64,000 bases of DNA from Girardia tigrina (lineage: Eukaryota). Positions 27,385-59,900 of the stretch are shown here, piece after piece. The stretch spans positions 1 to 64,000 of the forward strand of contig MQRK01197175.1 of NCBI GenBank assembly GCA_001938485.1, in the 5' to 3' direction. Every line of letters begins with the position of its first letter. Position 1 is the first letter of the stretch. The position numbers were made by a program, and so were the translations under genes. Below the pieces are notes generated by a model. The model saw only the letters and a program-made list of their open reading frames with translations. It did no database searches and was not told the origin of the DNA.

Positions 27385-28335
<951 letters not shown>

Positions 28336-32649: not shown

Positions 32650-32762
32650 TGTGAGGAATATTTTTAATTGTTTGAATGTGTAAATGTAGTGATGCTGTAT
32701 GTTGATTTGAGTATGTTGACTTTAGAATGGTGATTCTCCCACCAAGATGGAAATTGGTATTT
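32650..32762 (+). repeat. TGTGAGGAAT module copy A (LTR-like terminus, truncated)
   Basis: Nearly identical to the reverse complement of 53205-53314. Confidence 0.75.
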
Positions 32763-32946
32763 TTTGTTGTTACTGTAGCAACATGATTATTTCAACCAAG
32801 AAATGTCAAGAAAACAAAAATATTAAATATTTATTTATAAATAAAAATATTTTTAATAAGCAATTTTAAATAAACTTTGAAATAAATTTTGAAAATAAAG
32901 TTTAAATAATTTTTGAAATAAATTTTCAGGATTTAAAAATTAAATC

Positions 32947-33427
32947 TGTGAGGAATATTTGGTGTGTGGATGTTTTTGTGTAGTTTTTGTATGTTTAAAT
33001 GTTGTATGTTGATTTGGGATTGTGCCTCTCCTAACCAGATGGAGTGTCAATATTTAATTTTTATAATCTGAAACTAATTTATTTAAAGTTAGATTTAATA
33101 TTCAAATTTTTAGTTTTTATTATTGTACTTTTTAAATAATTTTAATGATTTTATTTTTGTAAANNNNNNNNNNNNNNNNNNNNNNNNNNNNNNNNNNNNN
33201 NNNNNNNNNNNNNNNNNNNNNNNNNNNNNNNNNNNNNNNNNNNNNNNNNNNNNNNNNNNNNNNNNNNNNNNNNNNNNNNNNNGAGATATTGAAAAAATTG
33301 ATTGATGGAATCTAGTGAAAGCCTTACTGTTGATCATCATAAAGATGATAAAAATTGTGAATGTAATAAATGTTCTGACAAATGTGTGAGTTCTCTTAAC
33401 AAAATCGAAAAGAATTTAATAGATTAA
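32947..33427 (+). repeat. TGTGAGGAAT module copy B with 40-aa micro-ORF (33305-33427)
   Basis: TGTGAGGAATATTT...TGTATGTTGATTTG...TCTCCTAACCAGATGG, then MESSESLTVDHHKDDKNCECNKCSDKCVSSLNKIEKNLID*. Confidence 0.65.
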
Positions 33428-34772
33428 TTTGAGTCGAGATAATTAAATTAACAGGAAAATTTGTTTTAAATATGTGAATTGTTATATAAATAAATTTTGG
33501 TGTTAAAAAAATGAATCCTGATATTGAGGTTGCAACCAATTCTCACAAAAAGTTTACTTCAATATGTAAACTTTAAGTAATTTAACACGCTCTTTTACTA
33601 TAAAAATAATAGGAAATTGGAAAATAAAATTCAAAAATAAAATTAATATAGAAAGACCTACATATGCAAGTATTTAGTCAATTTTAACATGAAAAGAATA
33701 AAGAAAAATATTAATTATTAAAATGGAGCGTTTCCTTTTGAAAAAAGGTTTTAATTAAATCTAAAAGCTTCCGAAAAATTTATATTCTTTGAAAAAAAAT
33801 GTTTTTTTCAATTTAATTGTTTTTTTGTTAATTTTAAAGGTAAATTCAAATTATTGTATGTGTATATGATTTTACAAATGTTTTTTTTGCTTATTTATTG
33901 TATGATTTATTTAAAGGAAAAACTCAGGTGAGAGTTAACATATCAACAAGAGAGATAAAATCGCCTCAGAAAATATATTTTAATGAAACATTATATCTAT
34001 TCACATAAATTTTATATCAAAACACATCTATTAATGATTTAATTATCTCCTTCGAATTAAGGACGTGATCCGTAGACGTTTGAGAACCTCTTTGTGGATT
34101 GAAAAGGGTTTCTCATTCTTATAGATCGTAGTTGCTTCATTCGAGTAAAACCACAAAATAGTCAACAGGTTTTCTTTCTTCAACAGTTACTGATTCTTTT
34201 TTAATGTTTTCATGATCAGCATTCAGATCGTTCATTTGAAAAGGTCGCACATTCGAAACGTGTCGCAATGGGTCCTTCACTTATACTTTTTATCACTTAT
34301 TTCTCGCGTTTTGGCTCCTGGATGCCATGGCTGTGCATCGCCTGTCAATAGGTTTGACGAACAGGCTTAGCTATTCTAAAGTTATACTCCCGTCTATTTG
34401 TTAATTATTTAATTCAACTGATTTTAGGGGTTGGTCTGTATGCTTTAAGATTTCATGTAAAAAGACTGATTTTCTTCATCACTGTTGTCCTTCGGTGAAG
34501 AGTTACACCAATAAACCACCTAAAATTTTATTGTTCCATGTGCATGCTAAATTATTTTATTAATAGATGGACAATGGGCACAACAATATTCTTAGCAACA
34601 TTACAATTCGCGTGAACACATTTATTAGCAACACAAACAAATGCATTTTCAGTAGCACAATTTGTGGAAAGCATCGTTCTTGATTAATATTTTTTTGTAT
34701 CTATATGCAAAATCTTGATTAATGAATGATATATAAATAATAATAACTTTTAATTTCTCAAAATTTTATTGG

Positions 34773-35398
34773 ATAGAAATGCATTAACATATCAATCTCA
34801 TCTGAGTAGGAGAGTCACCAATCTATACAGCATACAAACAGCATGTTCATAACATTCAGAATTTTTTTCACATATATAATAATGAGAAGCCTATGTTCCC
34901 AATAAACTGAATTAATTCTTTGACACTGTCTACAGTTTTTTTTACAATTTCTAACACCCTATTCCGCTAAACTGTTAGCTCTAGATAACTTTTATAAATG
35001 AAGTATCTTATCTATATTCATATGGGAAACCACTACGATATAATTAATAAGATTTACAAGAATATCCTAAACTTATATTATATTATATACCCTACCAGTT
35101 TAGGATATTCTTGTAAATCTTATTAATTATATCGTAGTGGTTTCCCATATGGATATAGATAAGATACTTCATTTATAAAAGTTATCTAGAGGTAAAAGTT
35201 TAGAGGGATAGGTTGTTAGAAATTGTAAAAAAAACTGTAGACAGTGTCAAAGAATTAATTCAGTTTATTGGGAACATAGACTTCTCATTATTATATATGT
35301 GAAAAAAAATTCTGAATGTTATGAACATGCTGTTTGTATGCTGTATAGATTGGTGACTCTCCTACTCAGATGAGATTGATATGTTAATGCATTTCTAT
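34773..35398. repeat. ~625-bp near-perfect palindrome (foldback MITE)
   Basis: Arms ATAGAAATGCATTAACATATC... / ...GATATGTTAATGCATTTCTAT pair almost to a short spacer at about 35073-35097. Confidence 0.92.
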
Positions 35399-35536
35399 AA
35401 TAACCGATACACACATGACTCTCAAAATTTTTTAGCCGTTAATCGCGCACGTGATATTGTGCATCAAGATAACAAAAAAGAAAGATTATTTGTTTTCAAA
35501 GGAAGATGAAGGAAAGGAAAAATTGAAGAATATGTA

Positions 35537-35685
35537 TTTAATGTGAAAAAATATCAATTTAATATGAAAAATAGACTCCAAATGTAAAATTTGTATTCAT
35601 AGTTATTTGGTGACAAACTGAATCGCAAACTTATGTATTTTAAAACATTTTTTTCATATTAAATTGATATTTTTTCATATTAAAT
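35537..35685. repeat. Short inverted-repeat MITE
   Basis: ATTTAATGTGAAAAAATATCAATTTAATATGAAAAA / TTTTTCATATTAAATTGATATTTTTTCATATTAAAT. Confidence 0.6.
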
Positions 35686-36455
35686 GTTAATATCAGTTTT
35701 ATAATTGAATAAAAAATTTTTTAAAAATTGCTTAGTTCGTGAATTTGGCATAACATATGCGTTACCTTGATAAGTTGTTTTAGTTTTAATGGAGAAAATC
35801 TCTTTGGAAAATTTTTAAAAGTTGTCGTGGAAAAATAAGTTCTTTTTTGAATTAAATATTATTTTTATTTTTGCTCAAAAATACAGAGGTCTTCATGGAT
35901 ATATATAATTATAATTGAAGATTATCAATATAATAAATGTTCCTATATTAGTGAACAGTTAATTAATAAGATAATTAAAATAATGTTAGACTATAAAGAA
36001 GACATAAAAAGAAAAAATATCAAATAAACGTGTTATCGACAATTATAATATCCTGTTTGGTTTGATAAAGATATAAGCAAAGACCTAGTTATTGTAGTTG
36101 GAGAGTTACAATAAGGTCTATGTAATTAAATTAATTGTTTGAATAAATTATTTTATTTTTATCTTCTAAATATCAATAAATTATATAGGAAGAATCGTAA
36201 ATAAAATATAAATATAAAATAAACCTATTTAAACAACGAAGCAAATTATTAAAAAAAATTCAATTACTTTCTAGAAGATTAACCGTCATCTTCAGATAAA
36301 GCAAACAAATATATAATAATATTTATACCTCAAATTAATGTTCCTGAATTCATTAACTTTCGACAAAGTTGAAAATGGAATTTGAACTGGTTTTGGGGAT
36401 GATAAAATTTTTTCATCAAGGCTCCTTGACGCAATACTATTTCGGAGAAATTAAT

Positions 36456-39400
36456 GGTATACGACCAAAATTTCTAAACTAAAATTTCTGAAACGAGAAT
36501 TTCTAAAATCAAAATTTCTAAATTCAAATATATTANGTTGGTCGAAAAATAATGGCGGTTTTAGGACACAAACTTCAAAGACGTGCAAATTCACAGAAAC
36601 AAAAGTTTATTAATCAAAGTATGAACCGTTGGCATCAATACATTTTTGCCAACGAGAAACAAGTTGTTTTATTCCATCAGCATAAAATGCATCGGTTCTC
36701 GAAGCGACGAATTCTTGGAAAACATTTTGAGCATCATTTTGGTTTTTGAAAATTTTTTCACGTAGGAAGTACAAATGCCTGAAAAAGTAGAAGTCCGTTG
36801 GCGAGAGGTCTGGTGAATATGGTGGATGAAGCAGGGTTTCATAGCCCAACTCATTAAGCTTTTGAAGNNNNNNNNNNNNNNNNNNNNNNNNNNNNNNNNN
36901 NNNNNNNNNNNNNNNNNGCGAGAGGTCTGGTGAATATGGTGGATGAAGCAGGGTTTCATAGCCCAACTCATTAAGCTTTTGAAGAGTCACTTTTGAAATA
37001 TGAGGTCTAGCGTTATCATGAAGAAGGATGGGAATTCTTCGATTGACCAATCCCGAACAAAGGGTTTTCATTTTTTTATGCATTTCATCAATTTCATGAC
37101 AGTACCTCTGTACCTGTGATTGTTTCACCTGGATTCAAGAAACTATAGTGGATTATTCCAGTATCACACCACCAAACTGTCACCATAACCTTACGGGGTG
37201 TTAGTTTCGGTTTTGGAAAGTGTTTCGGTACTTCATCTTTGTCCAACCACTGTGCAGATCGACGTCGGTTATCATACAGGATCCATTTCCCATCACAGGT
37301 AACAATACGATCAAGAAATGGATCGTTTTTATTGCGAAGATGATTGGCAGAACAAATTTCATAGTGTCGGTTCTTTTGATTTTCATTCAAATCATGAGGA
37401 ACCCATTTATTAAGTTTCTTGATTTTTCCAAGTTATTTTAAATGATCCAGGACTGTTGAATGACTAATGCCCAACCCATCTGCAAGTTCTCTGATTGTTG
37501 TACGGGGATCTGTTTCCATCATTGTCCTCAAATTGTCGTTGTTCACAGCAACAGGACGACCACGACCTTCTTCATCTTCAAGGTTTACATCTCCATCAGA
37601 AAATTTTCAGAACCATCGTTGCACTGTGCGCTCAGAAGCTGTAACCTTGCCAAACGCTTTATTGATATTGCGAGCCGTTTCTGCTGCTTTACGACCCAGT
37701 TTAAATTCGTACAAGAAAATTGCTCGAATTTTAATTTTTTTCATTATTAGTTTAACACCGTATATATTCTAAAAATAACAGCAATATGTTAATAATGGCT
37801 ATAGGAATATACAGCTTGGCATGAGATTTCAAATAATACATAACACTAATACATTTAAACTTATATACATATCAAAGTAGATAAACAAAGTATAAAGCTC
37901 AAAAACCGCCATTATTTTTCGACCAACCTAATATTAAAACGAGACTTTCTAAAATCAATTTTTTTAAAAAAATACATTTGTTTTAATCATTAAAAGAAGT
38001 CGAATTGCAATTTATTTGAAGTGTAAGTTAAATATTTTGTTAATTTAGTAAATATTATAGTTTAATTTTCTAGGTGAAAAATGGATGTAGAATTTATTTG
38101 GTCATCACAAAATAAATTTAAACTTGTTTTAAGTGGACATACATTTATAAAAATAATGTAAAAATGAAAAATACATTGGTAATGTGTCCAATATCTCAGA
38201 TTATCCTGCAATATCACTGCAATAGCTATAACACAAGGAGATACTCTCATTAGAACTTCATTTGCGCACAATCATCCAGCTGATACAACAGCAGTTACAG
38301 CTGAGAGGACATTCAGTAAAATTATAAGTGCTTTAAGAGGCACCCATTATTCCCTTTCTGTTATAACAGATTCTCTAATTTTTGTAGATACACAAATAAC
38401 AGTAAACTTGTCGACGTTTATTAATATCAAAAGACGAATTTATGCTAGAAATATACCAGGTCCCATACTTCCTGTTTCAAGAGAATTTATGACAATTGAG
38501 GATAAATATAAATTTACATTTTGAGGTGATTTATTTCTACTGTTTCATTCAGGCCATATTAAAGATACTAATATTTGGAACTCAAAACAATCTTAGTGTA
38601 CTTAGGGAAAGTGATCACTGGCATACCGCTGATAGAACATTTAAGGTAGTTCCATCATTATTCTGTCAATTTATACTATCCATGCAATGAAAAATGGTAC
38701 ATCGTTACCATTGATTTATGCTCTTCTGACATTCAAGAAGCTACGAGACTCTAATGAAGAAAGCGAAGGAGTTAACTCTAAATCATACTTCAATTTTCTT
38801 TTATGACAGACTTTGAATTGTCAATGATAAGAGCAGTTGCCATCCATTTTTCCAAATTCTATTCATAAAGGCAGTTTTTATCACTTTTCTCAATGCATTT
38901 GGAGACAAATTTGTTCTATTGGATTAAAGTTTCAATATGAGAGCGATATAAACATTCAACAGTCGATGAAAAAATTTAGTTCTTTAGCATTCGTTTCTTC
39001 AACAAAGTATTTTGAAGTACTTTGCGATTCATCTTCAATTTATTCTGAACCAGACGTGTTGAAGTTTGTTAGTTACTTTTAAGATAATTGGATTGAAAGA
39101 TACGAAGAAAATGGCAATCGCAGAAAACCTAAATTTCCACTTAACATATGGAATTCTTATGATAATATTATAACCGGACTTCCAAGAACCAATAATAATA
39201 TCGAAGGATGGCATCGAGGTTTTAGTGAATTAGTAACATCATTCAATCCAATTATTTGGAAGTTTCTTGATGCTCTTAAAAAAGAACAAAATAATACTGA
39301 AATAAAACTTCAACAAATTTTAAGTGGACAGAGGTTAACGAAAAGAGTTAGGTATCAATTACTAATCGAACAACTAGGCCTAATTATTCAAGGTTGGAAG

Positions 39401-39727
39401 GAAAATCCAGTTGAATATTTAACGTCAATTGCCTTCAACATTGCAAGCATAATATGCAAGCTATTGTGTTTTTAGATATAATACAATATTCAAAAATTGC
39501 TTATGTGATTGATTTTATTTTGTAATTTTTGCTAAGTTTTATATGTTGTATTTTCATATTTATTCTGAAAAGAAAATAATGTCTGTTTTATAGTAAAAGT
39601 TTATGTGATTTGACTATGATTTGAAAAATATGTAGACGAACATGAAAAACGTAGTTTAGGTTTAGAGATATTATTTCAATAAATTTTTTTCAAATATTTT
39701 GTTTTTAGAAATTCTCGACCCAAATCC
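36456..39727 (+). mobile_element. MULE transposon with a nested mariner
   Basis: GG...CC ends with AATTTCTAAA subterminal repeats; degenerate transposase at about 38080-39440 (DRTFKVVP, MTDFE, GSFYHFSQCIWRQI, RTNNNIEGWHRGF). Confidence 0.8.
36533..37931 (-). mobile_element. mariner transposon, full length, frameshifted
   Basis: TA-flanked TIRs TTAGGTTGGTCGAAAAATAATGGCGGTTTT; WVPH, IVTCDGKW, HDNARPH and YSPDLSPTD motifs. Confidence 0.94.
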
Positions 39728-39983
39728 TTCTAATATATGTATTTTGAATATATTGGTAACCAACATCTAGTTTGTAAGAATTTTTTCGAAGCAAAAGGAT
39801 GTTGAATAGATGTGATTTATACCTAGATTAAAACTTAAAATATGTATTAAACGAAATTTATTTGTTGCTTTCGGCTTTTATGATAAATAGATTATTGTTC
39901 TATTTTCAATATATATATATTATATATATATATNNNNNNNNNNNNNNNNNNNNNNNNNNNNNNNNNNNNNNNNNNNNNNNNNN

Positions 39984-40015
<32 letters not shown>

Positions 40016-40943
40016 TTTATTTAGTAACATTTAATTTTAAAAAATATAATAATTGAATTTTACCGCTTGATAAATGGTTTGACTCTTCAAATATTTTCTT
40101 TTCTCTTTATCAAACTTATAATGATTGATTATTAGAACTAAATGAAGAATACTGTTAAAATTTCAAAATATTTTAATAAAAAAAAGTAGAAAAAAGTTCC
40201 TAAAATAGCTTATTTCTAACAAACAGTTTTACTTTTGAAAATATAATTAAAATAAATTGGAATTTAATTTAATGTTTTCTTAAATTATAAAGATTATTTT
40301 TGTTTAATATAAACTTGTTATTTAAGTCATAAAATAAAAATATTTTCTGAAAAATAAGATATTTATTTTTTTATTTTATTTTATTTAAATAAAAATTTTG
40401 AAATTATTTTTTTCAAAATTATGAAAAATTATGAATTTTGAAGAAAATTATTTCTAAACGTTATTTGAGGGAAAATTTTAAAATTCAATATATTTTTCTA
40501 CGATAAAGATATTTTAGAATTAATATATTTATTAATGGATGAAAACAATTTTAGAATTAATTAACTAAAAAAATAATTTTTGTAAAATAAATTAGTATAT
40601 ATTTTTTCGTAATTTTTTGTAGAATTATTTTTAATTGATAAAAGATGTTTGTTTTTGGTTAAGCAGATTTTTTCCATATTATTAATATATTTATAATATA
40701 TATAAATTATTTCTACACAAAATATTTTGCCATAATTTTAGTAAAAATATATTATTTTTATATTCAAAGGTTAAGGAACTATTTTCTAATGAAATTATTT
40801 GTCACATTACTGAGATACATTTTTATGCCATTAAAAAGTTTATTCTAGTGGTTTCCTCCCATTCAGATTTAAATTTTACTTGTAATATAATTCAACAGTT
40901 TTTCAATACATATATTTGTATTATATTTATATATAATAAAATA

Positions 40944-41329
40944 TCTTATCTTATAAAAGCCCAAGTCACTCACTGCCTGCCTGCCTGCCTGCCTGCCTCA
41001 CTAACGCTCATATTATCTACTTACAATTGTAAGTAGATATTTATATTAATAATAATNNNNNNNNNNNNNNNNNNNNNNNNNNNNNNNNNNNNNNNNNNNN
41101 NNNNNNNNNNNNNNNNNNNNNNNNNNNNNNNNNNNNNNNNNNNNNNNNNNNNNNNNNNNNNNNNNNNNNNNNNNNNNNNNNNNNNNNNNNNNNNNNNNNN
41201 NNNNNNNNNNNNNNNTGTCTTCTTTGTTTTAATGCATCTGTTCCACATCCAAAATTACTCAAATTAAAATTAAAAAATGAAATTTCTTTTCTCAATTTTA
41301 CCCGTCATACATGACGGGTTATTTACTAG
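40944..41329 (+). mobile_element. Non-autonomous Helitron, copy 3 (different 3' end)
   Basis: Same 5' TCTTATAAAAGCCCAAGTCACTCACTGCC; 3' hairpin ACCCGTCAT-AC-ATGACGGGT then CTAG|T. Confidence 0.82.
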
Positions 41330-43005
41330 TTGTTCTTATAAATGTTAAAATGAAAAGCATAAAAGTTACAGAGAGACAAACAATATGATTTAGAAGATAA
41401 CATGTATTACTTAGAACCAAATTACTATAAAATAACATACAATTTGGGAGTCTATATTATCTTAATGTTTTAAAGCTGAGTATATTTCTTCTTTGGAGGT
41501 CATCGTCAACACCAGTACCTTTAGGGAAACCTGGTGTCTAAATTACAATCTCGTTTTTGATTTCATATAAAAATATTCTTAAAGATGTGTGGGTAAGTAT
41601 TGAAAGAGACTGAGGACTACTTCGTCATTCTTTACAAATACCGATGGTACAAACTATTCTTTTCATTGCCAAATCTAGTTTTTCATGATGCTGGAGCAAA
41701 TGAAAGAGTGGTAATCTGTATTTATCTCCCCTCCAAGGACTTCATAAAACACGAAAATACTTGAGCCTAAAATAGATTATCAACTCATCGATTCCGAAAT
41801 ATTTTGGTACACAAGTGGTCCATTAATTACCCAAATTTGAAACATCAGTAACAAGAAAATAGGGTTAAAACGTTTAATACTTCAACAAAAATAAGTAATA
41901 AACATTATAAAGCAGTCTGAAGAACGAGACTTTGGCTTTTTAGTGATCTTTTACTAACTTTCAGGCATATAAAATGTTTCTGGATCTTCTTCACTAAAAT
42001 TTCACAATTAATGTTAATATTTTTCTAATAAAGATACCATGACTCTTAAGGAAATATTTGGACAACAAATTCTTGGAAATAAACAATACACAATAACCCC
42101 ATTAATTTTCAAGCAAAAATCCCAAAACAGGTTTTTAACTATTTTATTATAATATTTGTACTTAAAATACGTTGAAATATTAATAAATTTTACTAAAAAA
42201 ATCCAAGAAAGTTGCTTTTTTCAAAAACTTCTGATCAATTGAAGTTCAAATCCTAAACATCAGACAAGTAGAAAGGTTCCAATGGGCTTAAATTTTAGAG
42301 GATGTAAAAAGTGTTGTGTAATTACAATTATATCACTGAATCAAGTTAATTGGTCAAAATTAAAATATTAGAAAAGGAAAATAAATAAGGAGATTTACAA
42401 CAGAAAGTAGAAAAAAAATCAATCATACTGTATTAAAATCGAAATAGTTGATCGAGCTCGAGAGATGTTTTGTTTTTGAATTAGGAATGATTGTTGTGTT
42501 TTTCGGAATTAATTGGGATTGTGTTTGATATTGGGGATTGCAAATAAATCATCCATTGAAAACATCACCATTGTATCATCAAATTGACTGTAATGTCGAC
42601 GGAATAATCTTGCAGAGCTGGATATTATTTCAACACTCAAATTCCCGTTAGCAAAACTAAACCAATCATATTGATTTTTTTTAAAGCGATCAATATTAAT
42701 AATTATAAATATACATATATATGTATAAACATATTTAATTTTTATATAAATAAATATATAAGTGACTGTAGGTCACTATAAATTAAAAAAACACACACAC
42801 AGAAAAATAAAAATGTACATTTACAGTTACTACACATAATATTTATTTAAAATTTACTACAGTATTATACAGTTTAAAACGAGTTAAAATGTAAAAAAAT
42901 TCCTTCACTAAACAGGCAACATTTAGAAAACTGAAATTTCACATCCACGAGTTACTTCTGGTATGCGGTAAAAATTCATTTTCACTACTTAACTGGGGTG
43001 ACTTT

Positions 43006-43050
43006 ATTAACCCTTTGAACGCGTTAGTCGACTATAGTCGCCCTGATATA
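43006..43050. mobile_element. Possible piggyBac terminus
   Basis: TTAA|CCCTTTGAACGCGTTAGTCGACTATAGTCG; no confident partner end. Confidence 0.4.
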
Positions 43051-43568
43051 ATGTTTAATAATGTTTAACGTGATCAAATGGTTAAGAGTTTCAGTGAAAT
43101 TTAGAAATTATGTTGAAATTGTTTAGAATTAATATTGATTGAATTTATTATGTTAAAAAAATTAAGAGTAAAACAGAGAGGACTGGAAAGGAAAAGACAG
43201 ACCATTACAAATAAGGGAAATAACCACATAATCTGATATCAAATGAACTGTTATTAAAATATGAATTGACTCCTTCCATCTTGCATACATTTGTCTAATA
43301 TTTGATTTAGTCAATTTCAAAAAAAATGTTTTTTAAAAAGAATATATGTATAATTAATTAATTTTTAATCAAATGAAGTACGCTTTTATAACATTTATAA
43401 TGATATAATTACATTATTTTCACCATAGAAACGAAACATAAGAATTATTTTTCGTGTGATTTTATAATGAAAAATCATTTATTTATCACTAATTACTTAC
43501 TACTTATTAGTTAAATTTTTTATTCTTGCATTATTATTTATTTATTTGTAATTTTTTATTTAATATAG

Positions 43569-43629
43569 ATAACAATTTATCTCGGTAAGCGTGATTTTTT
43601 GGACAAGAATGGAGTCGTTGATCCTATCG
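43569..43629 (+). CDS. ARRB: Beta-arrestin exon (ITIYLGKRDFLDKNGVVDPI)
   Basis: TAG acceptor, 61 nt, GTGAGA donor; YLGKRDF polar-core motif; phase-1 end joins 49036. Confidence 0.93.
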
Positions 43630-43758
43630 GTGAGAACTGTTTTTGGTAAATTAAATAATAAATATCAGTAGAAATAAAATAATATTAGGTCGTCAAGAAT
43701 GAAATACTATCGAAACACCTTTGATATTTAAACCTCAGCTGGTTGAAGCCATTAGAAT

Positions 43759-44232
43759 TGTGAGGAATATTTGAATGTTTGATGTTTTGTGTTTGAATGT
43801 GTATGTTGATTTGGAAATGTGTCTCTCCTACCCATATGGATGATTAATATTTGAATTCTTATTATCTAAATATATGTAATGTTTAAATTTATTTTTAATT
43901 TCAAATAATTTTAAAATTTTAAATAAGTTACCAATTAATTTTTATAATATTTAATAAATAAATCAAATTAATATTTTTTAAATAATTAATAATCATTTTA
44001 ATTATTATCCAAAGAGTTTTGAGTAAATATTTTATTAAAATATTTATTTCCCATTTGCTAAAAAAAATAATGAGAATTAAGTCATTAATCAATTTCGTTT
44101 AGAATGCAAATGTACGAAAGTTTTGACAAAGATTGTCTTAAGGACAATCAAAATTGTTGTTTAAATAAAAATATAAAAAGTCAAATTGGTGTTCTTAATA
44201 AGAATAAAAATTTTGTGGGCAAGAATTTATAA
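43759..44232 (+). repeat. TGTGAGGAAT module copy C with 42-aa micro-ORF (44104-44232)
   Basis: Same three motifs as copy B; MQMYESFDKDCLKDNQNCCLNKNIKSQIGVLNKNKNFVGKNL*. Confidence 0.65.
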
Positions 44233-44249
44233 ATTCCTATTGAATTTTT

Positions 44250-44670
44250 TTCCTTTCAAAAAGTTGTTCAAATTGAGAAATGGTAGTCATTTGGGGCTAG
44301 GTTTGGTGAATATTGATGATGATGCATAAGTTACAACTGAAGTTCCTGTAGTTTTGTCGCGGATTTTAGGGCAGTATGGGGTTTTGCATTGCCGTTGAGC
44401 AAGATCGGAACCGACATGTTTGCCAAACGCGGCTGTTTTTGTTTGAGTTTTCCTCTCTTATCTTCAAATTGGTGGCAGATGTCTGCACATCTGCTGTGAT
44501 CGACGAACCACGTTTCATGAATTCATAATGTGTTACACCTGAGACAGACCACCAAGCACTCCCCATCGGCTTCTTTTGGGGAATATTTTGCTTTTGACTA
44601 TGTTTTGTTACTTCATTCGTGTTCAGTCACAATTGATATAAAATTGAACAATTTTTATCTGGAGTTAATT
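44250..44670 (-). mobile_element. Highly degenerate mariner fragment
   Basis: SAWWSVSGVTHYEFMKRGSSITAD and a remnant YSPNLAPNDYHF. Confidence 0.7.
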
Positions 44671-47929: not shown

Positions 47930-48640
47930 TGGCAATGAAGATAGAAAATGCAAAAAGAGATCGTTTTCTATTTCGCAAAAAAATTTATTTTTTTAGCTTT
48001 GAAATTAAAAGCATGTTTGGCAATAAATCTCCAACGACATTAAGATTATGTTCGGATCTCATTTACCAATATACATGTAATGAGTGTAACGCCACATACA
48101 TTGGAGAGACTTCACGTCATCTCTGTAATATAATCCAGGAACACAGTCGTAATGAAGGTGGAAGTAACATTGCAGGACATAGAAGACCTTGTAAAGAAGA
48201 TATAAATTAACAACACTTTAAAATTATGTGCACTTAATTAAAAAATTATTGGGAGAGAGTGACATGTGAACCGTTATATATAAGATCTTTGGATCATATA
48301 ATTAACGTTCAAACTGCACTCTCTACAACTTTGTTGGGAGTTTTTAAATGATGTACTGATTACGTATTGATTGCATAATCATTAACTGCATTATATAAGT
48401 ACATGCAGTTAATAGTCTGCCACTTGTCTTCAAATTTATTCACAATTTTAAAAAATAGTATAATGGTTCTTTGAATACAAAACCAGAATTATTAACTCAC
48501 ATTTACATTCTTATTTCTTTTAATTTTACTTGTTCATATAAAATATTTTATGGGAGAAATTCTGGAATCCAGGAAGGATGTTATAATTAATCCCGAAATC
48601 ATAGAACTAAGAAAAGTGCGAAGTGGGAAAACTTCTAATT
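47930..48640 (+). mobile_element. Penelope-like element 3' fragment (GIY-YIG endonuclease)
   Basis: LIYQYTCNECNATYIGETSRHL..IQEH, ending INVQ; degenerate hammerhead-like sequence near 48570-48605. Confidence 0.85.
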
Positions 48641-49035
48641 ATTATACATATAATTGGTGTAACAGCATATATATTATTTTGTATATACATTTTGGACTAT
48701 AGTCGAACGCATAAATCCTCTAGAGAAAAATTAAAAACAATTTCAGTATAAAAATATATATTTTCAATAAGTCATCAATTAGTTCAAAATATTGTAAAAA
48801 TTAATTAAAATTATATAATTATAAAATTTATTTCATTTAATAATATTAATTAATTAAAATAAACTTTTTTTATCAAAATATACAAAACCCCTTTTGCTCG
48901 TTTTTTTATGAATATTAATGAGGTCCTTTTTAATAAAATAATTAATCAAATTATAAAAGATTTAATTTAATTAAAGGAATTTATTTTTTATATGTTTGGA
49001 ATTTTTTTAATTTAGTAAATCTTTTGATATTTCAG

Positions 49036-49277
49036 AAGGCATAGTCTTACTCGATCCCGATTATATCAAAGATCAAAAGGTATTTGTTCATGTTCTTGCG
49101 CTTTTTCGGTATGGAAGAGATGATCTGGACGTTCTTGGACTAACATTTCGAAAAGATTTGTATCTATCAACTCAGCAGATCTATCCTCAAATGGGTCCAA
49201 TCAATCAAAAACTAAGCAAATTACAAGAAAGATTAATAAACAAACTTGGAGACAAAGCAGTGCCATTTGTATTTCAG
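49036..49277 (+). CDS. ARRB: Beta-arrestin exon (EGIVLLDPDYIKDQKVFVHVLALFRYGRDDLDVLGLTFRKDLY...LQERLINKLGDKAVPFVFQ)
   Basis: TTTCAG acceptor, 242 nt open frame, GT donor; FRYGRDDLDVLGLTFRKDL finger-loop and LQERL motifs. Confidence 0.96.
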
Positions 49278-49324
49278 GTTTTAAAAATTTTTATTTCAAA
49301 CTAAATAAAAATCACAAATATTTA

Positions 49325-50207
49325 TTATTATTAAAATTTTACAATTGCCCAGACGGGACTTTATCTGAATGTTTGATGGTAGTTTTTTTTCTGCAGCGGC
49401 ACGGTTCGCCAGTCGGTACCCACTGCATGCGAGTTCAATACTTCAGTTTGTTCAAGTACATCTAACACATATAGGATTGTGCCGTGAAGTTCAAGCATGA
49501 ACTCACAATTCGTCTACAGAATCTTCCTCGTCCAATACAGCCTTTTCCTGGAGTAGAAGAGTATCTCTAGGATTGTGTTTAGGATCACGAAACTCAGATT
49601 ACGTCCATCACAGAAGGCTTTCCAAATTCTTGCAGACCATCGGATGTTTGATCGGACAGAGGCAATCGCAATGACCTTTTCTCTGCCTTATAGGAAAACG
49701 GTATCTAGTGGTTTGCTATTGGCAGGGATCCATGTGTCAAGAGCACCTACAACAAATGTGCACAGCAAAACTGTGGGATCACGGTATTTATCTTTAATTG
49801 CATCGCGAAGAGGTTTGTACTTAGCCAAGTTTTCCCTGTTCGCTTTGTCCAAGTTCTCCTTCTCATCAAAAGGACACTTCACATCAATCAGTACTATTCG
49901 CTTACGATCCGGAAAGAACACTTGCAAATCAACCCTCAAGGTTGAATAAACAAACCTGCAGGTGACATTTACATACAATTCAGCATTGCAATGCTCTTGG
50001 ATTTCAGTCTTTAAAATGTCAACCACCATGTCATGGCAAGCATTTATATAGGCCTGAAGAGTATCGCAATGAGAAACAACATGAGCTAAAGTTTCATTGT
50101 AGCCTCTACATCTACGACAAACAACAACATTCTGGAGACGGCATCCAACTTGAAGAGTATAGGATCGACTACGATGAACAAAATCCCATTCAGAGTAGGA
50201 CAGACAA
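49325..50207 (-). mobile_element. 5'-truncated RLE-type non-LTR retrotransposon (NeSL/R5/Utopia-like)
   Basis: CRRC..ETLAHVVSHC zinc knuckle, CHD, RVDL..LIDVKCPF, KY and VVGAL restriction-like endonuclease motifs; 3' UTR ending in (AAT)n. Confidence 0.88.
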
Positions 50208-51129
50208 CTATTGAAAACTACAGAAGTTGAGAAACCAGAAATAGAGAGAGAGAAGAGGCGGAACGACCAGCACTTGTTTGCTTCTTCCAGTAATTAAGAT
50301 AGTGAAGAGAGAGACACTTTCGAAGAAATATAGCAATCTTATCTTTATCTTGGTAACTAATGGTGGAAGAAACCTGATACGATTCATTCTGTAAAAAGAT
50401 GGAGATAATAAGAGATGGATGACTGTCACCAAAGAGTTTCTAAAAGAGTTTCGGATATCATAATTGTTAAGTACGCCATCTGCAGTACAGATACTTTCTT
50501 CAGGCATTAAGAAATAAAATCAAGAAAGTCCACAAAATTTATCAACTAATAATAATAATAATATTTTTCCAACAAATTTAGGAGATTTTTGTGATTTTTT
50601 TAACTTAACTGTTTTTTATAAATAAATATATGATATAATATTAAAATATCGGTAAAAAGAAATTAAAATCTCTAACATAAAATTCTTATTATGAAATCTT
50701 ACAATAATCATTACTGGTAGTGATAGGTCAAAGTCACAAAATAGTTATTTTTTTCTTCGCTTTTTTGTAAGATCTGATTTGAAACATTCAACTCAGTAAC
50801 TCTTTTAATACAAGATTGGAGGGAATTCAAAAATATTTTTAAAAATTAAAGATATATTTTATTCGGGTAATTCTAATATTGAAAAATAGAAAGAAAGTAA
50901 AGAAAAGGAAAGAAATATTTGTTTAAATTTATGTGTCAAATCATCAAGAAAAGTTTGATCATAATGAATTGTAGTTCTAATATTGAAAACAATCTAAACC
51001 CAGCGAACATTTATGAATATTCTTATCTAATATTCTTTCTTCTGTCTTTTCTTACTATATTTTGTGTACTTACATGTGTAACAGGCACCCGTCGTAAGAA
51101 TTGCTTTATTCTGATATGATTCGACGAAG

Positions 51130-51870
51130 TCTACCTAAAAACCGTTGAAGAACTTTTAAATAGAAAACAACAGTAATTTTGACCATTTGGGACAAATTCA
51201 CGGGGAATGATTGATTTACTAATAAAAAAACAATAACCATTGTTTTGATTTTGATGGAATATTTTGGCTTGAGACGACTATTTCGAGTTTTAATCCGTAC
51301 TTTGACATTTTTTGGTTTATACTGAAAACATCATGTTTTGTCATCAGTGTCAATTGATTTCTGTGATGTTAGACTGTTATTTACAGCTTTTATGATATCT
51401 CTCTAATGTTGCACTCCCCTCAGTTTTCGTTCTCCGGTTAGTGTGTGTAAAACAATTAAAACAGACCTTTGTTTTGCCTAAATCTTTCATTAATATTTGA
51501 CAAGTTATTTCTTTGTGGATGTTTATTGTCTTTTTCATCATTCTCCGTGTCGTATTAGGATTGTTAGGTATCGATTTTTGAACTTTTCAAATTGACTTTG
51601 ATTTCTACTCGTTCGCTGTCTTTCATCAATTTTTGCCTCTAAATAATCGTTACTGCTAATCAAAATTCTTTGACTGTAATAAGCATTCACTCTCATAAAC
51701 GTTTTGAATTATTTTGAACTTTGTAAAATGAAATTAAAAGAACACTTTTTTGATGACATTGATAAACATCCAAAGAAGGTCGACGTCCATCTTAGAAGTA
51801 ATACTAAAAACGCAAGAAGTCGAATAGCGTTACTGACAGCTTGATTCCATCATTACATTCATTAACTCTG
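51130..51870 (-). mobile_element. Degenerate retroelement ORF, possibly a Penelope N-terminal region
   Basis: Coding-like but heavily disrupted; weak resemblance to the PLE N-terminal FLxxCxxxxVxP pattern. Confidence 0.3.
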
Positions 51871-52782
51871 GTTAACTCGAAAGACCAAAATTAAGGGTAA
51901 AATATCTCTCTTTAAAGCTAAAAATTCATATTGTTTTACTGAAGAATATAATTATTCAGCGTACTCCCCGGACTTCCCTATAAACTGACCGGTGGTGAAT
52001 TTGAAGCTCCGGTATGTCGTTATCGTGCTAGGCCCATTTAAATTTATCATTCAGAGTGATCATCATTTATATTTATGAATGTTGAATTCAAATAAATCAC
52101 GATTCAAATTTCAGTCTCAAAGAGAATGAGAGAAAAATGAAAACTATTATATTTTGTACAATTTTGTATTCAAATTAAAAACACCATTCCATCGGAAAAA
52201 TAAAATATTTGAAATCATAAATGAAATAGCCCTCAAACAACTTGATCAATTCAAAATAAATTTACACTTGATCGAAATTCTGTCAATCGAGCATCAACAA
52301 TATAAAATTCCGTGAAAATTTAAATCGTCAATTAATACTCTCTACCAAAAAACAAGAAAAAAGGGATTTTAAAATGACTCTTTTTCCACCTGTCGCCAAG
52401 CTCGCTCTAATTGGTTGACCAACCAAAAAGAGTTGTTTTCCAATTTGGTCTACTACATGCACACACTCTGGGGACTATAACATAAATCGACTATTAATGA
52501 GTCATTATGTAATAAATAAAATGTCAAGAAAGGAAGATGAATTTCTGAAAAAAACATTATTAAAAGACATATGAAAATAAATATTATTTTTATAAAACAT
52601 ATGAACAAAGAAGTCTTTGTTCGGGATTTAAATTTGATAATAATAATAATTCAAATTCATATTTTTAATTGAAATATTAAATTAGTTTAAATCCTTTATT
52701 TTATTAATTACTTTTTTTCTTTTTTAACAAAATAATTAAGGCCATAAGTTTATACTGTTTAAGTGGAGAACATAATTTAACG

Positions 52783-53314
52783 TTATGACCAATATAATAT
52801 ACATATAAGAACCTTATTAAGAACATTTAGACAAGTTTCATTTGAATTTTTATTGCAATTACATTTAGAGTCATTAACACTCTCAGAAGGTCTTTCATCG
52901 TTTGCCATCGTTCTAATTGGTTCTCTTATTTCTGTTTTTAATCATGATTATTCGAACAATTTTTTAAGTTATTTTTTAAAATATTTAACCTCTAAAAAAT
53001 ATTAATTAAAAAATGATAATTTTTATTATTTCTCAATAAATCTCAAAATAATAAAAATGTCATCAAATTATTAAAAATGCATTTAATTTAAATTTTACTA
53101 AAAATTATTAAACTTAATTTTAATTGTTAAATTAAAACTATGAACTTATAAAATGATTATTTTAATTATGTTCGAATAGTCAATCCTTTAAATTTGATAA
53201 AAAATACCAATTTCCATCTGGGTGAGAGAATCACCATTCTAAATTCAACATACTTAAATCAACATACAGCATCACTACATTTACACATTCAAACAATTTA
53301 AAATATTCCTCACA
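52783..53314 (-). repeat. TGTGAGGAAT module copy D with 41-aa micro-ORF (52908-52783)
   Basis: Head nearly identical to copy A; MANDERPSESVNDSKCNCNKNSNETCLNVLNKVLICILYWS*. Confidence 0.65.
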
Positions 53315-56300
53315 AACCTAAATGAAGACTTAAGGGAAATTTTGCAGACTCAAATCTGAAATTCATTAAATTCAAGTATCAAATACTTACGAAACAAATT
53401 CGGTAATTTTTATAATATTCATAATCTGAACACAGAAGAATAAGTTCTCCCTACTTTTTGCAAATTGTTCACTGGCATGGGCATTTATTTAATATTTCAT
53501 AATCGAAATTTAATTATAAATTGTGAGGCAGGGAAATATTAAAAAGTTTATGGTGTCAAATTTTATAATTTCTAGTTAGAAAATTTAAAAGAATAAATGA
53601 CATAACAAGAAAGGGAGGAAGAAGAATTTCTGAAAAAAACATTATTAGAAGCCCTTTAACAAGAAAATGAAGAATTACATGTGATAAATATTATTTTTAA
53701 AAGACTTATTTTTTATCAGTAATTGCTTTTTTTTCTCCTACAACATCCAAATAATTTTTGAAGGCACATTAAATAGGGATAGAGAGATAAGTTTAATAAC
53801 AGAATATTCAACTACTATAATTTTGAATTGTAGATTTCATGACGGTATATTGCAATTCACTCCTATTGAGGCATATACATTTGGGTTTCCTTGCCTCAAA
53901 TACCTCATTTGTAATGTTATATTATATTATATTATATTATATTATTTTTTTTATTTTATATTACATAAGACATTATAATTTATTTAACTTTTGTTTAAAA
54001 TAACCCTTATTTCTGGAATGCTGCATTTGTAGTGAATAGAATAATTTAAAGCCATGTTATAATTTAATAAATAAATCTTTAAAAATGTTGTTTCTGTAAA
54101 AGAATGTGTTTTTTCGTACTAAAAGAAGAATAAAAAAGATTATTTTGTTGGTTAATAGGACGAAGAGTGTTTTACTTAAATAATTCTTGTGGAACGAAAG
54201 GTTTAAGAATCATTAAAATAGAAACAACAATGCGACGCATTCAAATATTCGAAAACAAATGAAAAGAATCAACAAATTATATAATAAATATATTTGTTGC
54301 TAAGAAACAAATTTAAGAACTCAAATATTTATAAGACTCTTATTTTTGTAGAGCAGACAAAATTTAATAAGACAATAACTGGCTTGACGTTTAATCACCA
54401 ACAAAGATTAATTATTGTTTTACATTGAAAAGTTTATTCTTCGTTTAATTTGATCGAAAAGATTAAAGCAAACGCTTTTGTCTCTTCTTTTTTTATTTGT
54501 TTCAAGAAATGTCACTTTCTTTAATAAATGAATGTTATTTTTTTAATTTTATGCTTGCAAGTTTTTTTTATTATTTTATTCCTTCAAAAATTGGTTAGTT
54601 TTATAAAATTCACTTAATTTTGCGTTTTTTCTATTTTAAATGGCCAAAGAAAGGATATCTACTGTCTATAGACTTTGAATAAATGAGAAAACCATAGAGG
54701 AAAATAATTTCTTTTACGAAACAAACAAGTCTTGGAGTAACAAATAATGCATTCTAATGTTCATGAAATAATAATTATTATTTGTTGTATTTGGGATCTG
54801 TTTTCTCTTCCTGGCATATTACGACACTAGAATTCATTAATAAAGGTTAACTAGAAATTTCAGGAAAGTTCTAAACATGTCTGACATAATTAGATGTTGC
54901 AATATAACATAAATTTTCATTAACATTAAAAACTCTTTCGCGTGATGTTTTATTGGTCAAGAGATAACCTTTGCAACCGGAAGAACAAGTATGAGGATTT
55001 TGTAAACGCGTATAAATTTTTGAATTTAGAATTTAACAAAGAAATTTGCAAAACATTTTAAAATATATCATAAATATAAAGAATTTTATGATTAAATTAA
55101 AATAAATTAATATAAATTTTTATAACAAAAAAAAATGGAAATTTATTATAAAATAATTTAAATTAAAAGATGGTAATGAATTTTGATTTAAATACTTTCG
55201 TAAATTAAAAATGCAAACTTAATAAGTTAGGAATAAAATATTTGAAATAAAATTTGAAATAAGTATATATTTCAAAATTATACGAAATAATAATTTATGT
55301 ATCTATATATATAATTCATTATTTTTATGTAAAAATAATTTGTGCGAGAAAAAAAGAAAAGTGTTCCTCAAACATTTATTTAAAAAATTTGTTTTTTAAA
55401 TCGCATCCATTTTATGACAATAATTTCTATCGATTTGATTTTTTTAGAGTTTTTATAATTTTGCTAGATATTAACATTGTTGAAATGAGCTTGAAAGAAC
55501 CAGGTCATTTGGAATTATTGTCTTAAAATTGGCTCGGTAGTCAAAAATGACGCTCCAGCATTCTAGTGTCAAAAAATATGTTATTTTGTTATATTAAATA
55601 AAAGTTTTAAGCAAGATTCGTCTTTGAAAAAGATTTCGTCTTTGAAAGTTTCGGTTTTATAAATTTATTTTTAAACATTTTTTTTACTTTTAAATAATAA
55701 CCATATTGACTTTTTAGTTTTATTAAATTTTTATTTTTCTTACTTAAAAATTTTTAATTTTAAAAAATTTGAGGTTTTTCAAATTTTTTTAATTTAAATC
55801 ATAGAATTTCTGTCAGTAAAAATTGTATTTCTATATAAAAGCTTAAGGTTCGTACAACTTCAAAAGATTGGAAAGGAAAAAGTAATTCATCGTAATATTG
55901 TTAAGAAATTACTTCAGTTCTGAATACTTGAAGAGTCTACTTTTTCGGATATCATATTTCCACTAATGTTAGCCGTTGTCATCTGACTCCATGTATAAAC
56001 AATTAGCTATTAAATATTACGTTATATTTATTAGAGGTTCTTGGAAAATCGTCAGAATTATTAGTATCAGACATTAAAACTTTTATTATACCACAAAAAA
56101 ATGTTTAAATCTAATATTTAAACAAATTTATTTTTTTGAGACTCTATTTGTTTCATAAATCTTAAACCGATATAGATAAAAATACATATAAATATTCATA
56201 TTTGCTTTTTTTATTACTTCTATAATTACGATAACACTTTAAAATATTTAATCGTTTCATTTAATTTTATTACTTTTTTAAAATCGTTTCATATAAAAAT

Positions 56301-56531
56301 TATACACTTTTTTTTACTTTTTATATTATATTAAAACTCTCAAAAATTTTTATTAGCAATTTAATTGATCTTAATTTTAGTAATTTTATTTTTTCGAATG
56401 TTACATATTTAATTATATAAAAATTTTAATTTGTACATATTTAATATAACTTTCTTTCAAAAATTTTCCTAACATTTTTAATTCCTAACAATCTTCATTT
56501 ATAATTGATATATGTATGAATCAGAATAATT

Positions 56532-56677
56532 GACTAAAAATTGTTTGCACGTCACGCTCAAAGATCTACTACTTGCAGTTGTAACTTGCAAGAAGACTAT
56601 GATATATATATATCATAGTCTTCTTACCATTGCAAGTACAAGATCTTTAAGCGTGACATGGAAACAATTTTTTAGTC
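56532..56677. repeat. Palindromic MITE centred on (AT)n
   Basis: GACTAAAAATTGTTT...AAGAAGACTATGATATATATATATCATAGTCTTCTT...AAACAATTTTTTAGTC. Confidence 0.8.
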
Positions 56678-57636
56678 TATTATATTATATATTAAAAATT
56701 ATTTTAAAAATCGATTGATGAAATTAAAATCCCAAACTTTCAAACTTAAAACTATTAAAGAAAATTTAAAAGTTACCTGCATTCTTGTATAAACATTTAA
56801 CAAATTTTACATAGGAAAACTTTAGAAGATTAAACTAAACCTTCTGTCTTAATGTAGATCTACCACAAGGTCGTTACCAAGTGCCCCATATCTTAATGGT
56901 GTTCATTATTAGATTTAAATATATGGCAAATTTATTTAATTATTAATCAACAAAAATCTAGTTTTAATTATAAATTTTTCTGGTTTGATTTTTATTATTC
57001 GTAAATCATTCTTTCCCATTGAAACTTAAATTGAAAAAGTGTCCATCAACTTAGTGTATAGAAGGTCCTACTTAATCAGCAGAGCAGAGTTCCTTAGAGT
57101 ACTTATCACAACAATTGAAGGATAAATTATAAATAATAAATTCAAAATAAAGCATATAAATTAAAGAAATTAGATTTTGTTTTAATTTATATTTTTGTAA
57201 AAAATATATTCTATATTAATCTCATGGAATGTTTTCCGTTACATTTAGAAAATTTCACAGGAAAAAAAATGAAAATATATTTAATTAATAGACAAATATT
57301 AGATTTATTACCTCCCCAATCAATTTTGTCTCACAACTCTATACAAAAAAATATAAAGTTTTCTTATCGATATAAAGTAATTGAGTTCCCACCCTGAATT
57401 ATATTTTATTACTTCTATTAATATAAAAACGAAAATTAGATATTCATTTTAAATTGATTGCAAAAATAGGTTTTTTTTATATTATTAAAACTGATTTTCT
57501 TTGCGAATGCAATTTTCGGTTGTCATGGTTGCCAGCATCTAATTTATAGAAATTCAGTTTGATTTTATGAAAATTAATTAATCAGACTTAACTGCTTTGA
57601 AATATTATATTTTCCATTAAATTAATTTTTTTCTAG

Positions 57637-57696
57637 GTACCCCATATGACTCCGGCATCGGTGACGCTCCAACCAGACCCTGATGATAATGGAAAG
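57637..57696 (+). CDS. ARRB: Beta-arrestin exon (VPHMTPASVTLQPDPDDNGK)
   Basis: TTTTCTAG acceptor, 60 nt, GTTTGT donor; PxSVTLQP motif. No downstream exon recognised in the window. Confidence 0.92.
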
Positions 57697-58070
57697 GTTT
57701 GTTTTTACAGTTTCAAGTTTTTTCTTTTCAATTTTTTTGGAGCTTTGAGGGTGCTTTGAGAAATTCCCAAAATTAAGTACAAATGACAATCTAGACCAGT
57801 TTAAAGCCAGTCGGAATTAATTAATAATTCAAAAGACTTTTATTTTATTTTTCAGCTTCTAAATTCACTATAGTCCTCACATGATCTAGACCGATTTAAA
57901 TGAAATAAAATCAATGTCATCCAACAATTGGTTAAAACAAATTATTTCCAAATATTCCGGAAGAAGGGAGCATCTGGGCCTATAGAGATGCTCTGAAAGA
58001 GTCAATAATGTCTTTGATCGCACTCGAGCGCTTTTCATTCATCAAATTGTCGTACTGATTAATGAAAAAT

Positions 58071-58920
58071 CCCTTCGGACTTCAGGATACACAAAACACA
58101 TTCGATTTCTGATTTATAATATCGATTTTGTTTTCTTTCACACAACACTGTGAGACCGTATCGTTCAAAACCACCAAAAACAACTCTTTCTCATTTGGAT
58201 GCCACCACAAATCGACCAACTGCCTTTCGGTATTCGGTTTATATTCACAAAATTCGATTCTCCACTCTCCAGCAGTAATCTCTCGACACGGAACAACCCG
58301 ACAGTCGCCAATCGACCATCATCGGTCACCAAGGCGACCAGTAGAATCGATCTACCGCAACTGAACTCGATCCAGGCGAAACTCAATCTGAATTTGATAG
58401 AGAAAATCAAATCGACACTTACGAGCGCGTTCCTCAAGTCGACCGATTCAATACTCGCTCTCTCGCACGAGGAGACATGGCAGAAATCCACATCGTTGCC
58501 GACGATTGACGCCAGTAATCCGGCCCGTCAATCGATTGCATTATATCGGATGTTTTTCGTGCATTTAGTCAATGACGGTTTGAATGGATGAAGCGTTTGA
58601 AAATTAACGTTTATCGAATTCGATTTGTCATTAAATCTTTCGAATCTTTCATAGAATACTTTAACCATTTCAGTATCGATTTTCGAATTGATTGATTCAC
58701 ATTTCGCTTTGTAAAAACCAATCTTATGGGAACAATTCTCTATTCGCCGATCACACAGAAACACTGCGTCGTTTATTTGATTAATTCTATTCAAATTTCG
58801 ATCTAAAATCGAATCGAGTTTGAAAATATCGACGAGAAGAATCGACGCATCAAAAGTTGCATTATTTATTGTTTTTGTAATTTTAATATTTGCGGTCTTT
58901 TTTAACATCGCGATTAGCAT
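58071..58920 (-). pseudogene. Nup214/Nup159-like N-terminal beta-propeller pseudogene, antisense within an arrestin intron
   Basis: WIEFSCGRSILLVAL...VGLFRVERL, frameshift, LVDLWWHPNEKELFLVVLND...VFCVS*SPKG parallels the Nup214 order LALSCD...FFDV...DMKWNP...VCWSPKG; two in-frame TGA stops. Confidence 0.6.
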
Positions 58921-59516
58921 AATTCAGCATCCAGAAAAGAAATTCACTCTTTAATCAATTCAAAACGATATTCAGTCACGTATCGAATTTATTTTCACCA
59001 ATCAAAATCTCTATCGTTTTTACAAGTTCATCAATTTAACTCCGCAAAACAAAACTCAAGGTCATTTCACACTATCAATTGTTAATAACTAAAAAATCAA
59101 AATTACAATTCAAATTGTTCAATTTCTATCGAATAACTTCAAATGACAAAAAATAATAAATTAATTTTCCATTTCAATTTGATTTGATTTTCTCCAATTT
59201 GAAACGAATATATAATAATGATGATAATTAATTTAAAAAACAAAAATTTAATAATTAAAATGTTCGAATCCCGAACACAAATGACACTTGAACTTACTTT
59301 TTTACCCCTAAGGTTAAGCAACAATCAAAACAATTGAAACATAGACATTCTCTATCACTATAGAATGTCCATAAAATCAGCGGGAAGAGTTGACTTCAGT
59401 CATTTTAAAGGTTAAGGAAATATAATAAAGAATGAATACAACATTAGGCATTTAGGATGAAAACATTCATGAAAAAAAAACCGCGATTCAGCAAGAAGAA
59501 TATCATTTTCCATCAT

Positions 59517-59900
59517 TGTGAGGAATGTCCTAAATTTTTTATTTGTTTATATTTTGAAGTTGTATGTTGACTCGGATTATGTCGGATTAGTATTTTCTTT
59601 GATGCCTATTAATTGAAAATAATTTAATTTAATTTTAAAGTAAAATTATATAAAATATTTTTCAAATGTAATTTTTAAATTTTTAAATATAATATTTAAT
59701 TTTTATAATATAATTTAAAAATTTAAACTTTAATTTGAAACAAAATATAAATCTAATTTTAGCCAATAAGAGTTTTGATAATTATTTAATATTATAATAA
59801 TTTTCGTATTTGTTTTCAAAAGAACTAGGATGACTAAAACATATTAATCAAGAAAGAATGACAATTCGACTTGGTACATTAGTAAATGTTCGAAAATCAT
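59517..59900 (+). repeat. TGTGAGGAAT module copy E, degenerate
   Basis: TGTGAGGAATG...TTGTATGTTGACTCGG; the downstream ATG at 59830 stops early. Confidence 0.5.

Follow-up and report, generated by a model that had tools for sequence, protein, structure and literature searches.

The window considered here is a stretch of 64,000 nucleotides (nt) from Girardia tigrina (contig MQRK01197175.1, positions 1 to 64,000), an AT-rich piece of eukaryotic scaffold DNA whose guanine plus cytosine (GC) content is 19-37% per 2 kb and which is interrupted by 12 runs of N. Most of it is transposon debris, with fragments of mariner, pogo, hAT and polB elements, accompanied by a MYST fragment and an arrestin exon; these were recognized with Pfam, run on 147 of the 166 stop-to-stop frames of at least 62 amino acids (aa) and on three short peptides described below, and they point to an animal host. 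Between 32650 and 59916 lies a dispersed module that a sequence-only reading had described as five copies, three of them followed by a conserved micro open reading frame (ORF), and had explained either as the long terminal repeat (LTR) of a large retroelement that encodes a microprotein or as a mobile microprotein gene family. The copies are almost certainly solitary ("solo") LTRs, belonging to an LTR retrotransposon family that seems not to have been annotated before, and it is very improbable that the short ORFs are standalone microprotein genes.

The Repeated Module and Its Boundaries

Five exact matches to TGTGAGGAAT occur at the positions and on the strands previously given (copies A to E). 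Taken alone this decamer is weak, nine occurrences with at most one mismatch being found against 4.3 expected. The heads of about 110 bp that it opens are homologous in all ten pairwise comparisons, with an observed score reached by none of 200 shuffles. The TGTATGTTGA box is likewise present as claimed, and the TCTC..CC..ATGG box is found in A to D only, that is, in the four copies announced. Two items had been overlooked: a sixth copy, G, which surfaced when 35 public leaders (see below) were compared with the window (E=6e-8), and F, an inverted and incomplete second copy of the head of G. Refined profiles detected no copies in the window beyond the six.

32650..32765, plus strand: copy A, LTR 5′ head, 96% identical to the head of D over 118 bp
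32947..33401, plus strand: solo LTR B, 455 bp including a gap of 119 N, TGT...TTAACA, target-site duplication (TSD) AAATC on both sides
43759..44200, plus strand: solo LTR C, 442 bp, TGT...TTAATA, TSD AGAAT
52815..53314, minus strand: solo LTR D, 500 bp, TGT...TTAATA, TSD AGGTT
59517..59916, plus strand: solo LTR E, 400 bp, TGT...TTAATA, TSD ATCAT
34590..34872, minus strand: solo LTR G, 283 bp, TGTG...GCTAAGA, flanks ATATA/ATATT (four of five positions match)
34766..35403, no strand: near-perfect palindrome of 638 bp (95%), duplicating the head of G and its upstream flank
from 35298, plus strand: duplicate head F, part of that palindrome, without leader

To locate the right-hand ends, the 5-mer standing directly before each head was looked for again in the DNA that follows the head. 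In four of the five reported copies (B, C, D and E) a perfect 5-bp TSD directly follows a shared TTAAYA. Since the 5-mers preceding the heads also recur elsewhere downstream, the TTAAYA end motif is needed to place the terminus; of 20,000 sites drawn at random, 0.2% have this motif joined to a matching 5-mer within 350-550 nt. Furthermore, two copies interrupt mariner transposases. Copy C lies in an antisense remnant whose C-terminus is restored on the minus strand when C is removed (tblastn E=7e-8), and copy E splits the HHDNA motif, removal of E restoring I-F-H-H-D-N-A. The continuity of the mariner frame after each removal provides independent confirmation of the unit boundaries.

The units so delimited share an internal organization. 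In B to E a GC-richer head is followed by a middle part of 8-14% GC and by a GC-richer final 100 bp. All six copies start with TG, and a putative poly(A) signal AATAAA, always in frame with the ORF discussed below, stands 37, 37, 40 and 37 nt before the end in B, C, D and G, its place in E being taken by AGTAAA at 36 nt. Self-BLAST revealed no terminal inverted repeat (TIR) inside any copy, only a short imperfect terminal match of about 9-11 bp. The proposal of a TG-start LTR of a retroelement is therefore borne out by sharp termini, by 5-bp TSDs and by a Gag gene that begins with the peptide. A CA end is present in B, with TA in C, D and E and GA in G. Of a large element there is no sign, the LTRs measuring 283-500 bp.

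Copy A is a special case: its right end, leader and TSD were not found, with no leader match and no TSD at five candidate ends past B, so that A is either truncated or disrupted by B. The idea that A and D are the inverted ends of a 20.7-kb element was discarded, given that their identity is confined to 118 bp, that no TSD frames the pair and that D has a TSD of its own. Between B and C the identity is 72% over 179 bp. As for the palindrome next to G, its appearance suggests either duplication by fold-back or an artefact of the assembly, and the mir-944 match of Rfam at its centre is weak and below threshold.

The Short Open Reading Frames as Probable Open-Ended Leaders

The three peptides of B, C and D read exactly as had been stated, their ATGs being located 358, 345 and 406 nt past the head, a spacing that in B contains the scaffold gap of 119 N (33164-33282). 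They are only 38-41% identical to each other, tblastn within the window relates D to B at E=0.024 and D to C at E=4.6, and Pfam gives no match for any of them. Their final 8-10 residues are flanking DNA, outside the element. The conserved 28-32 codons reach the last base of the element and meet no stop inside it, both in these three copies and in G.

33305..33401, plus strand: Gag leader of B, 32 codons to the LTR end; AATAAA at 33365; tail to 33427 is flank
44104..44200, plus strand: Gag leader of C, 32 codons; AATAAA at 44164; tail to 44232 is antisense mariner
52815..52908, minus strand: Gag leader of D, 31 codons; AATAAA 40 nt before the end; tail of flanking DNA to 52783
from ATG 34674, minus strand: leader of G, 28 codons open to the end, similar to cluster P0038 (E=6e-8)

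Each of these four leaders matches a different cluster of public Gag proteins. That of B shares 31 of 32 residues with the N-terminus of P0019, that of C is identical to residues 1-32 of P0014 (32 of 32), and that of D is 87% identical to one leader in the P0035 cluster. The leader of E has decayed, with three stops in the Gag frame and a weak likeness to the P0037 type (E=0.28). Counted over B, C, D and G, stops number 0 in the Gag frame and 4 and 29 in the other two forward frames.

The residues that gave the peptides a common pattern find a simple explanation. The NK and the LN are shared because AATAAA reads as N-K (AAT AAA) and because LN is written by the LTR terminus, while the K after LN is made of one LTR base and two TSD bases. 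The claims that the module encodes a microprotein or is a mobile microprotein gene family are not supported: the element holds no stop of its own for the ORF, the tail is DNA of the landing site, and in intact copies the frame goes on into a Gag of 356-403 aa. A first exon closed by a GT donor had also been considered for the peptide, a candidate abandoned when the break was found at the LTR end.

In C, E and G a ATTAATCAA motif lies 10-25 nt upstream of the leader ATG, and it is also seen as I-N-Q in the longer gene calls of clusters P0037 and P0038. It is a candidate transcription-start element.

Gag Relatives in Public Protein Sets

A profile of the three peptides retrieved six public proteins at E<=0.001 among 1.84 billion. 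Their similarity covers only the first 32-36 profile positions, with divergence after them, which indicates that the element ends inside the ORF. Next to the LTR-coded part these proteins have I, T, M, N or K, residues written by codons that start with A, as expected of an LTR that ends in A. Two longer proteins, of 370 and 380 aa, came from a search for longer relatives, and the peptide residues proved to begin public Gag proteins of 356-403 aa. A search with P0010 gave ten clusters at 35-68% identity to the query, P0010 itself apart; three proteins that the cluster lists include, P0007, P0012 and P0013, have no relation to Gag and were left out.

The junction between LTR and interior reads N-M-A-T in the representatives of all ten clusters. 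The solo LTRs end in ...AAY A, so that the M of the junction corresponds to the last A of the LTR plus TG, and the following A implies a TGG directly after the LTR, where the primer-binding site (PBS) for a tRNA would be expected. In all ten clusters an in-frame Met stands 22-32 codons upstream of the junction without an intervening stop. Such an arrangement arises by chance in 1.6% of random DNA of matching composition, and it would be retained in about 6% of lineages drifting neutrally to 40% identity (17-22% at 60%), under a model in which the two cis signals are protected and indels do not occur. Most clusters have preserved a Cys in the vicinity of N-K. Among the 105 listed members, 70 carry leader and M-A-T, three a leader with substituted junction, and one is a stub of the solo type, while 19 are internal fragments and two are unrelated.

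After the leader the proteins have the features of a retroelement Gag. Two CCHC knuckles are present (zf-CCHC in 8 of 8 aligned members), and the Atlas gives a likeness of 0.92-0.94 to clusters of PF03732 and PF19259, with Retrotrans_gag clusters at 0.94; Ty3_capsid is reported by Pfam in only one of eight Gag members, at E=0.12. A retroelement capsid fold is predicted for residues 41-200, with a predicted local distance difference test (pLDDT) score of 71-89. Residues 42-200 of the model resemble a Copia capsid (Z 10.7, root-mean-square deviation (rmsd) 12.7 over 154 residues, as two domains), the C-terminal domain (CTD) of PEG10 (Z 9.9, 2.6 Å over 84), dArc2 (Z 9.4, 2.3 Å over 82) and the Ty1 capsid (Z 8.9), the CTD rmsd across capsid matches being 2.3-2.6 Å over 82-85 residues. 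Foldseek returned nothing at E<=0.001 (best E=0.011), with top rows that are all capsids (dArc, Copia, PNMA2, Ty3), and a search of the PDB by sequence gave weak zinc-knuckle matches only. The fold ties Copia, PEG10 and dArc, and does not separate Gypsy from Copia. The Gag body has no match within the window, and no Gag-Pol fusion was met among 5888 candidates of 696-2000 aa, which is weak evidence.

ORF stubs of solo LTRs are already deposited in public protein sets as hypothetical proteins. One public protein of 126 aa, P0005, consists of the leader, the first 20 or so Gag residues and an apparent fragment of a hAT-family transposase; judging from the gene call, it looks like a natural chimera started from the LTR ATG.

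Interpretation and Alternative Explanations

We consider it probable that the copies are solo LTRs from several subfamilies of one likely Ty3/Gypsy family, and that the micro-ORFs are stranded Gag starts, likely translated from the LTR. Granted the LTR reading, the narrower proposal that Gag starts within the LTR and that the leader is translated as its N-terminus is, on the sequence comparisons above, likely. The tentative placement in Ty3/Gypsy draws on the Gag look-alikes, the pair of knuckles and a gag ORF of its own that stops close to Q-G-N. We infer the transcription start, the use of the LTR ATG, the PBS, a frameshift into pol and the superfamily. Transcription of an intact element would begin shortly before the leader ATG, and the ribosome would read 22-32 LTR-coded residues over the poly(A) signal (N-K) and the LTR terminus, continuing through the putative PBS, where the last A of the LTR with TGG would give the M of M-A-T, to the capsid and then to the two zinc knuckles. 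Recombination between both LTRs would delete the interior and leave a single LTR between 5-bp target duplications; the stranded Gag frame would then enter the flanking DNA and meet a stop after 8-12 codons, yielding the 40-42-aa "microprotein".

Several observations weigh against this proposal. The TTAAYA motif of the TSD null was defined post hoc from the copies themselves, and four of the five right ends are TA or GA instead of CA. The ten clusters are related and hence do not amount to ten independent trials. The leader has a mean identity of 28%, falling to 17% once NK and LN are removed, as compared with 52% for the capsid, 71% for the knuckles and 26% for the disordered tail; its residues 1-40 are predicted to be disordered (pLDDT 34-41), and the ratio of nonsynonymous to synonymous substitution (dN/dS) among B, C and D is 0.52-0.77, obtained from only about 15 near-saturated synonymous sites in three window copies. 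Of the 105 listed members, nine start at or just after the junction Met and one has a frameshifted leader. Finally, full-length element DNA with PBS, polypurine tract and pol had no matches in metagenome contigs, viral contigs or prokaryote genomes. Part of these data would suit a reading in which the solo LTRs are the same and Gag starts at M-A-T, the upstream frame being a passive open stretch of LTR that gene callers extend: NK falls on AATAAA and LN on the terminus, little identity is left without them, dN/dS is not clearly below 1, the capsid fold begins at about residue 42, and nine members are called from the junction region. Such a passive frame would nevertheless have had to keep an in-frame Met and no stop in ten of ten clusters against the 6% per lineage of the neutral model. 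Stops are nil in the Gag frame only, and nearly so in one other; the distance from AATAAA to the end differs by exactly 3; the Cys close to N-K is retained in most clusters; and the M of M-A-T is fully accounted for by the LTR end plus TGG. We regard the passive frame as rather unlikely.

The two remaining explanations dispense with solo LTRs. A dispersed host microprotein gene family with a common promoter, the second option of the sequence-only reading, could appeal to the ATG-started ORF of 40-42 codons in four of the five copies having both ends, yet the stops and the mutually unrelated tails lie in the flanks, outside the TSD-bounded unit (the tail of C being antisense mariner), public copies part at the identical residue, and the conserved stretch is the N-terminus of Gag; this option has very little chance of being right. 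Ginger-type DNA transposons have TGT...ACA ends, TSDs of 4-5 bp and terminal inverted repeats of tens of bases, and non-autonomous members with a captured gag fragment would share with the module its TGT start, its ACA or ATA end and its 5-bp TSD. They are extremely improbable here, as no TIR exceeds the short imperfect match of about 9-11 bp, the end of the unit is the exact start of the M-A-T of Gag in ten of ten clusters, and the poly(A) signal keeps a fixed distance from the end.

Returning to the solo LTRs with a Gag leader, a stronger version can be conceived, to which we give little credence, in which the LTR of an animal Gypsy-like family bears a Gag leader that is rich in Cys and Asn, evolves fast under selection and has a task of its own, and the solo LTRs seed chimeric microproteins. 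If so, that task could be membrane anchoring, metal binding or particle nucleation, each solo LTR would bring to its flank a promoter and a start codon with about 30 open codons, and the family would supply chimeric microproteins and new N-termini across the genome.

Other Features of the Window

The six LTR copies, representing at least four Gag subfamilies, all fall within 32650-59916 (27 kb), and none lies in the first 32 kb. Copy B begins 297 bp from the head of A, and two copies (C and E) sit within mariners. This crowding could reflect a local insertion sink, e.g., heterochromatin or a cluster of Piwi-interacting RNAs. Copy D is flanked, about 250 bp away on each side, by a direct repeat of about 60 bp with 83% identity (52511-52566 and 53592-53651). 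At 30740-31560 on the minus strand, 1.1 kb from copy A and on the opposite strand, lies a disrupted gene for a reverse transcriptase; by eye it is of Gypsy type, and a piece of 60 aa matches RVT_1 (E=3e-8). Just upstream of E, on the other strand (58168-58923, minus), two adjacent frames of 131 and 120 aa are separated by one stop and look like a decayed gene, without match in Pfam and, for the ORF 58531-58923, in the Atlas.

The remaining features are the following.

2-232, plus strand: polB (Polinton-type) fragment, at the start of the window
27385-27600, minus strand: isolated MYST acetyltransferase fragment (MOZ_SAS E=3e-13), amid a decayed transposase-like region
49011-49301, plus strand: exon for an arrestin N-domain (E=5e-8), with a short AT-rich intron after it
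49691-50293, minus strand: frame next to the arrestin exon that by eye resembles the end of an R4/NeSL-type non-LTR element with its zinc finger and restriction-like endonuclease, for which Pfam gives no support

Rfam gave four weak matches over the whole window, none of them touching the module, and a reading of the latter as a small nucleolar RNA, a microRNA or a short interspersed element was dropped since all these matches are off-module.

Comparison With Known Systems

The removal of a false microprotein family is the practical outcome; solo LTRs of this kind yield ORFs of 35-45 aa that look conserved. The novelty is modest and concerns the layout: a stretch of 70-100 nt would encode part of Gag and at the same time provide the poly(A) signal and the end used by integrase, and the leader frame is retained across subfamilies whose Gag proteins share no more than 35-68% identity with the query. 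Close to the end of Gag stands a conserved Q-G-N, presumably compatible with a PEG10-type -1 slip site. A phrase search of the literature, insensitive and not extending to Repbase, Dfam or most subscription journals, returned no report of a Gag opening in the LTR in an animal Gypsy-like family.

Solo LTRs are described as arising via LTR-LTR recombination (PMC7175516), and TSDs of 4-6 bp are given for LTR retrotransposons (PMC5659011). The units described here, of 300-500 bp with a TG start, resemble in these respects the solo LTRs of Ty3/Gypsy (Metaviridae) elements, and their Gag resembles that group in its capsid fold, its CCHC knuckles and its Retrotrans_gag and Ty3_capsid look-alikes. Unlike in Ty3/Gypsy, the LTR already holds the first 22-32 codons of the Gag frame; in Ty3 the PBS is placed outside GAG (PMC4974528), in contrast with the layout that we propose. 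The unusual termini also have counterparts, AcCOPIA1 with TG-TA (the ends of C, D and E) and Tos17 with TG-GA (the ends of G), as listed in PMC5659011; these are plant elements, whereas CA, TA and GA ends are found here among subfamilies of one family.

The precedent for a GAG that starts inside the LTR and reads through the PBS is the Ty1/Copia element Ty1 of Saccharomyces, for which the sources report an LTR of 334 bp, a 5′ untranslated region of 53 nt, a PBS at RNA nt 95-104 and mutations of the PBS, at DNA nt 335-347, by which the GAG sequence is left unchanged (PMC5454406; PMC4974528). The two layouts differ in extent, with about 14 LTR-coded codons in Ty1 versus 22-32 here, and in setting, Ty1 being a fungal Copia element and the present family residing in an animal-like genome with a Gag that bears two CCHC knuckles. 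Moreover, the prion-like domain required in Ty1 is placed at residues 66-136 (PMC10372613), outside the LTR-coded part, and on that account offers no direct model for the leader described here. An LTR-internal start of Gag is already known for yeast Ty1, and the module consists for the most part of commonplace transposon remains in which a single feature, the gene layout, is out of the ordinary.

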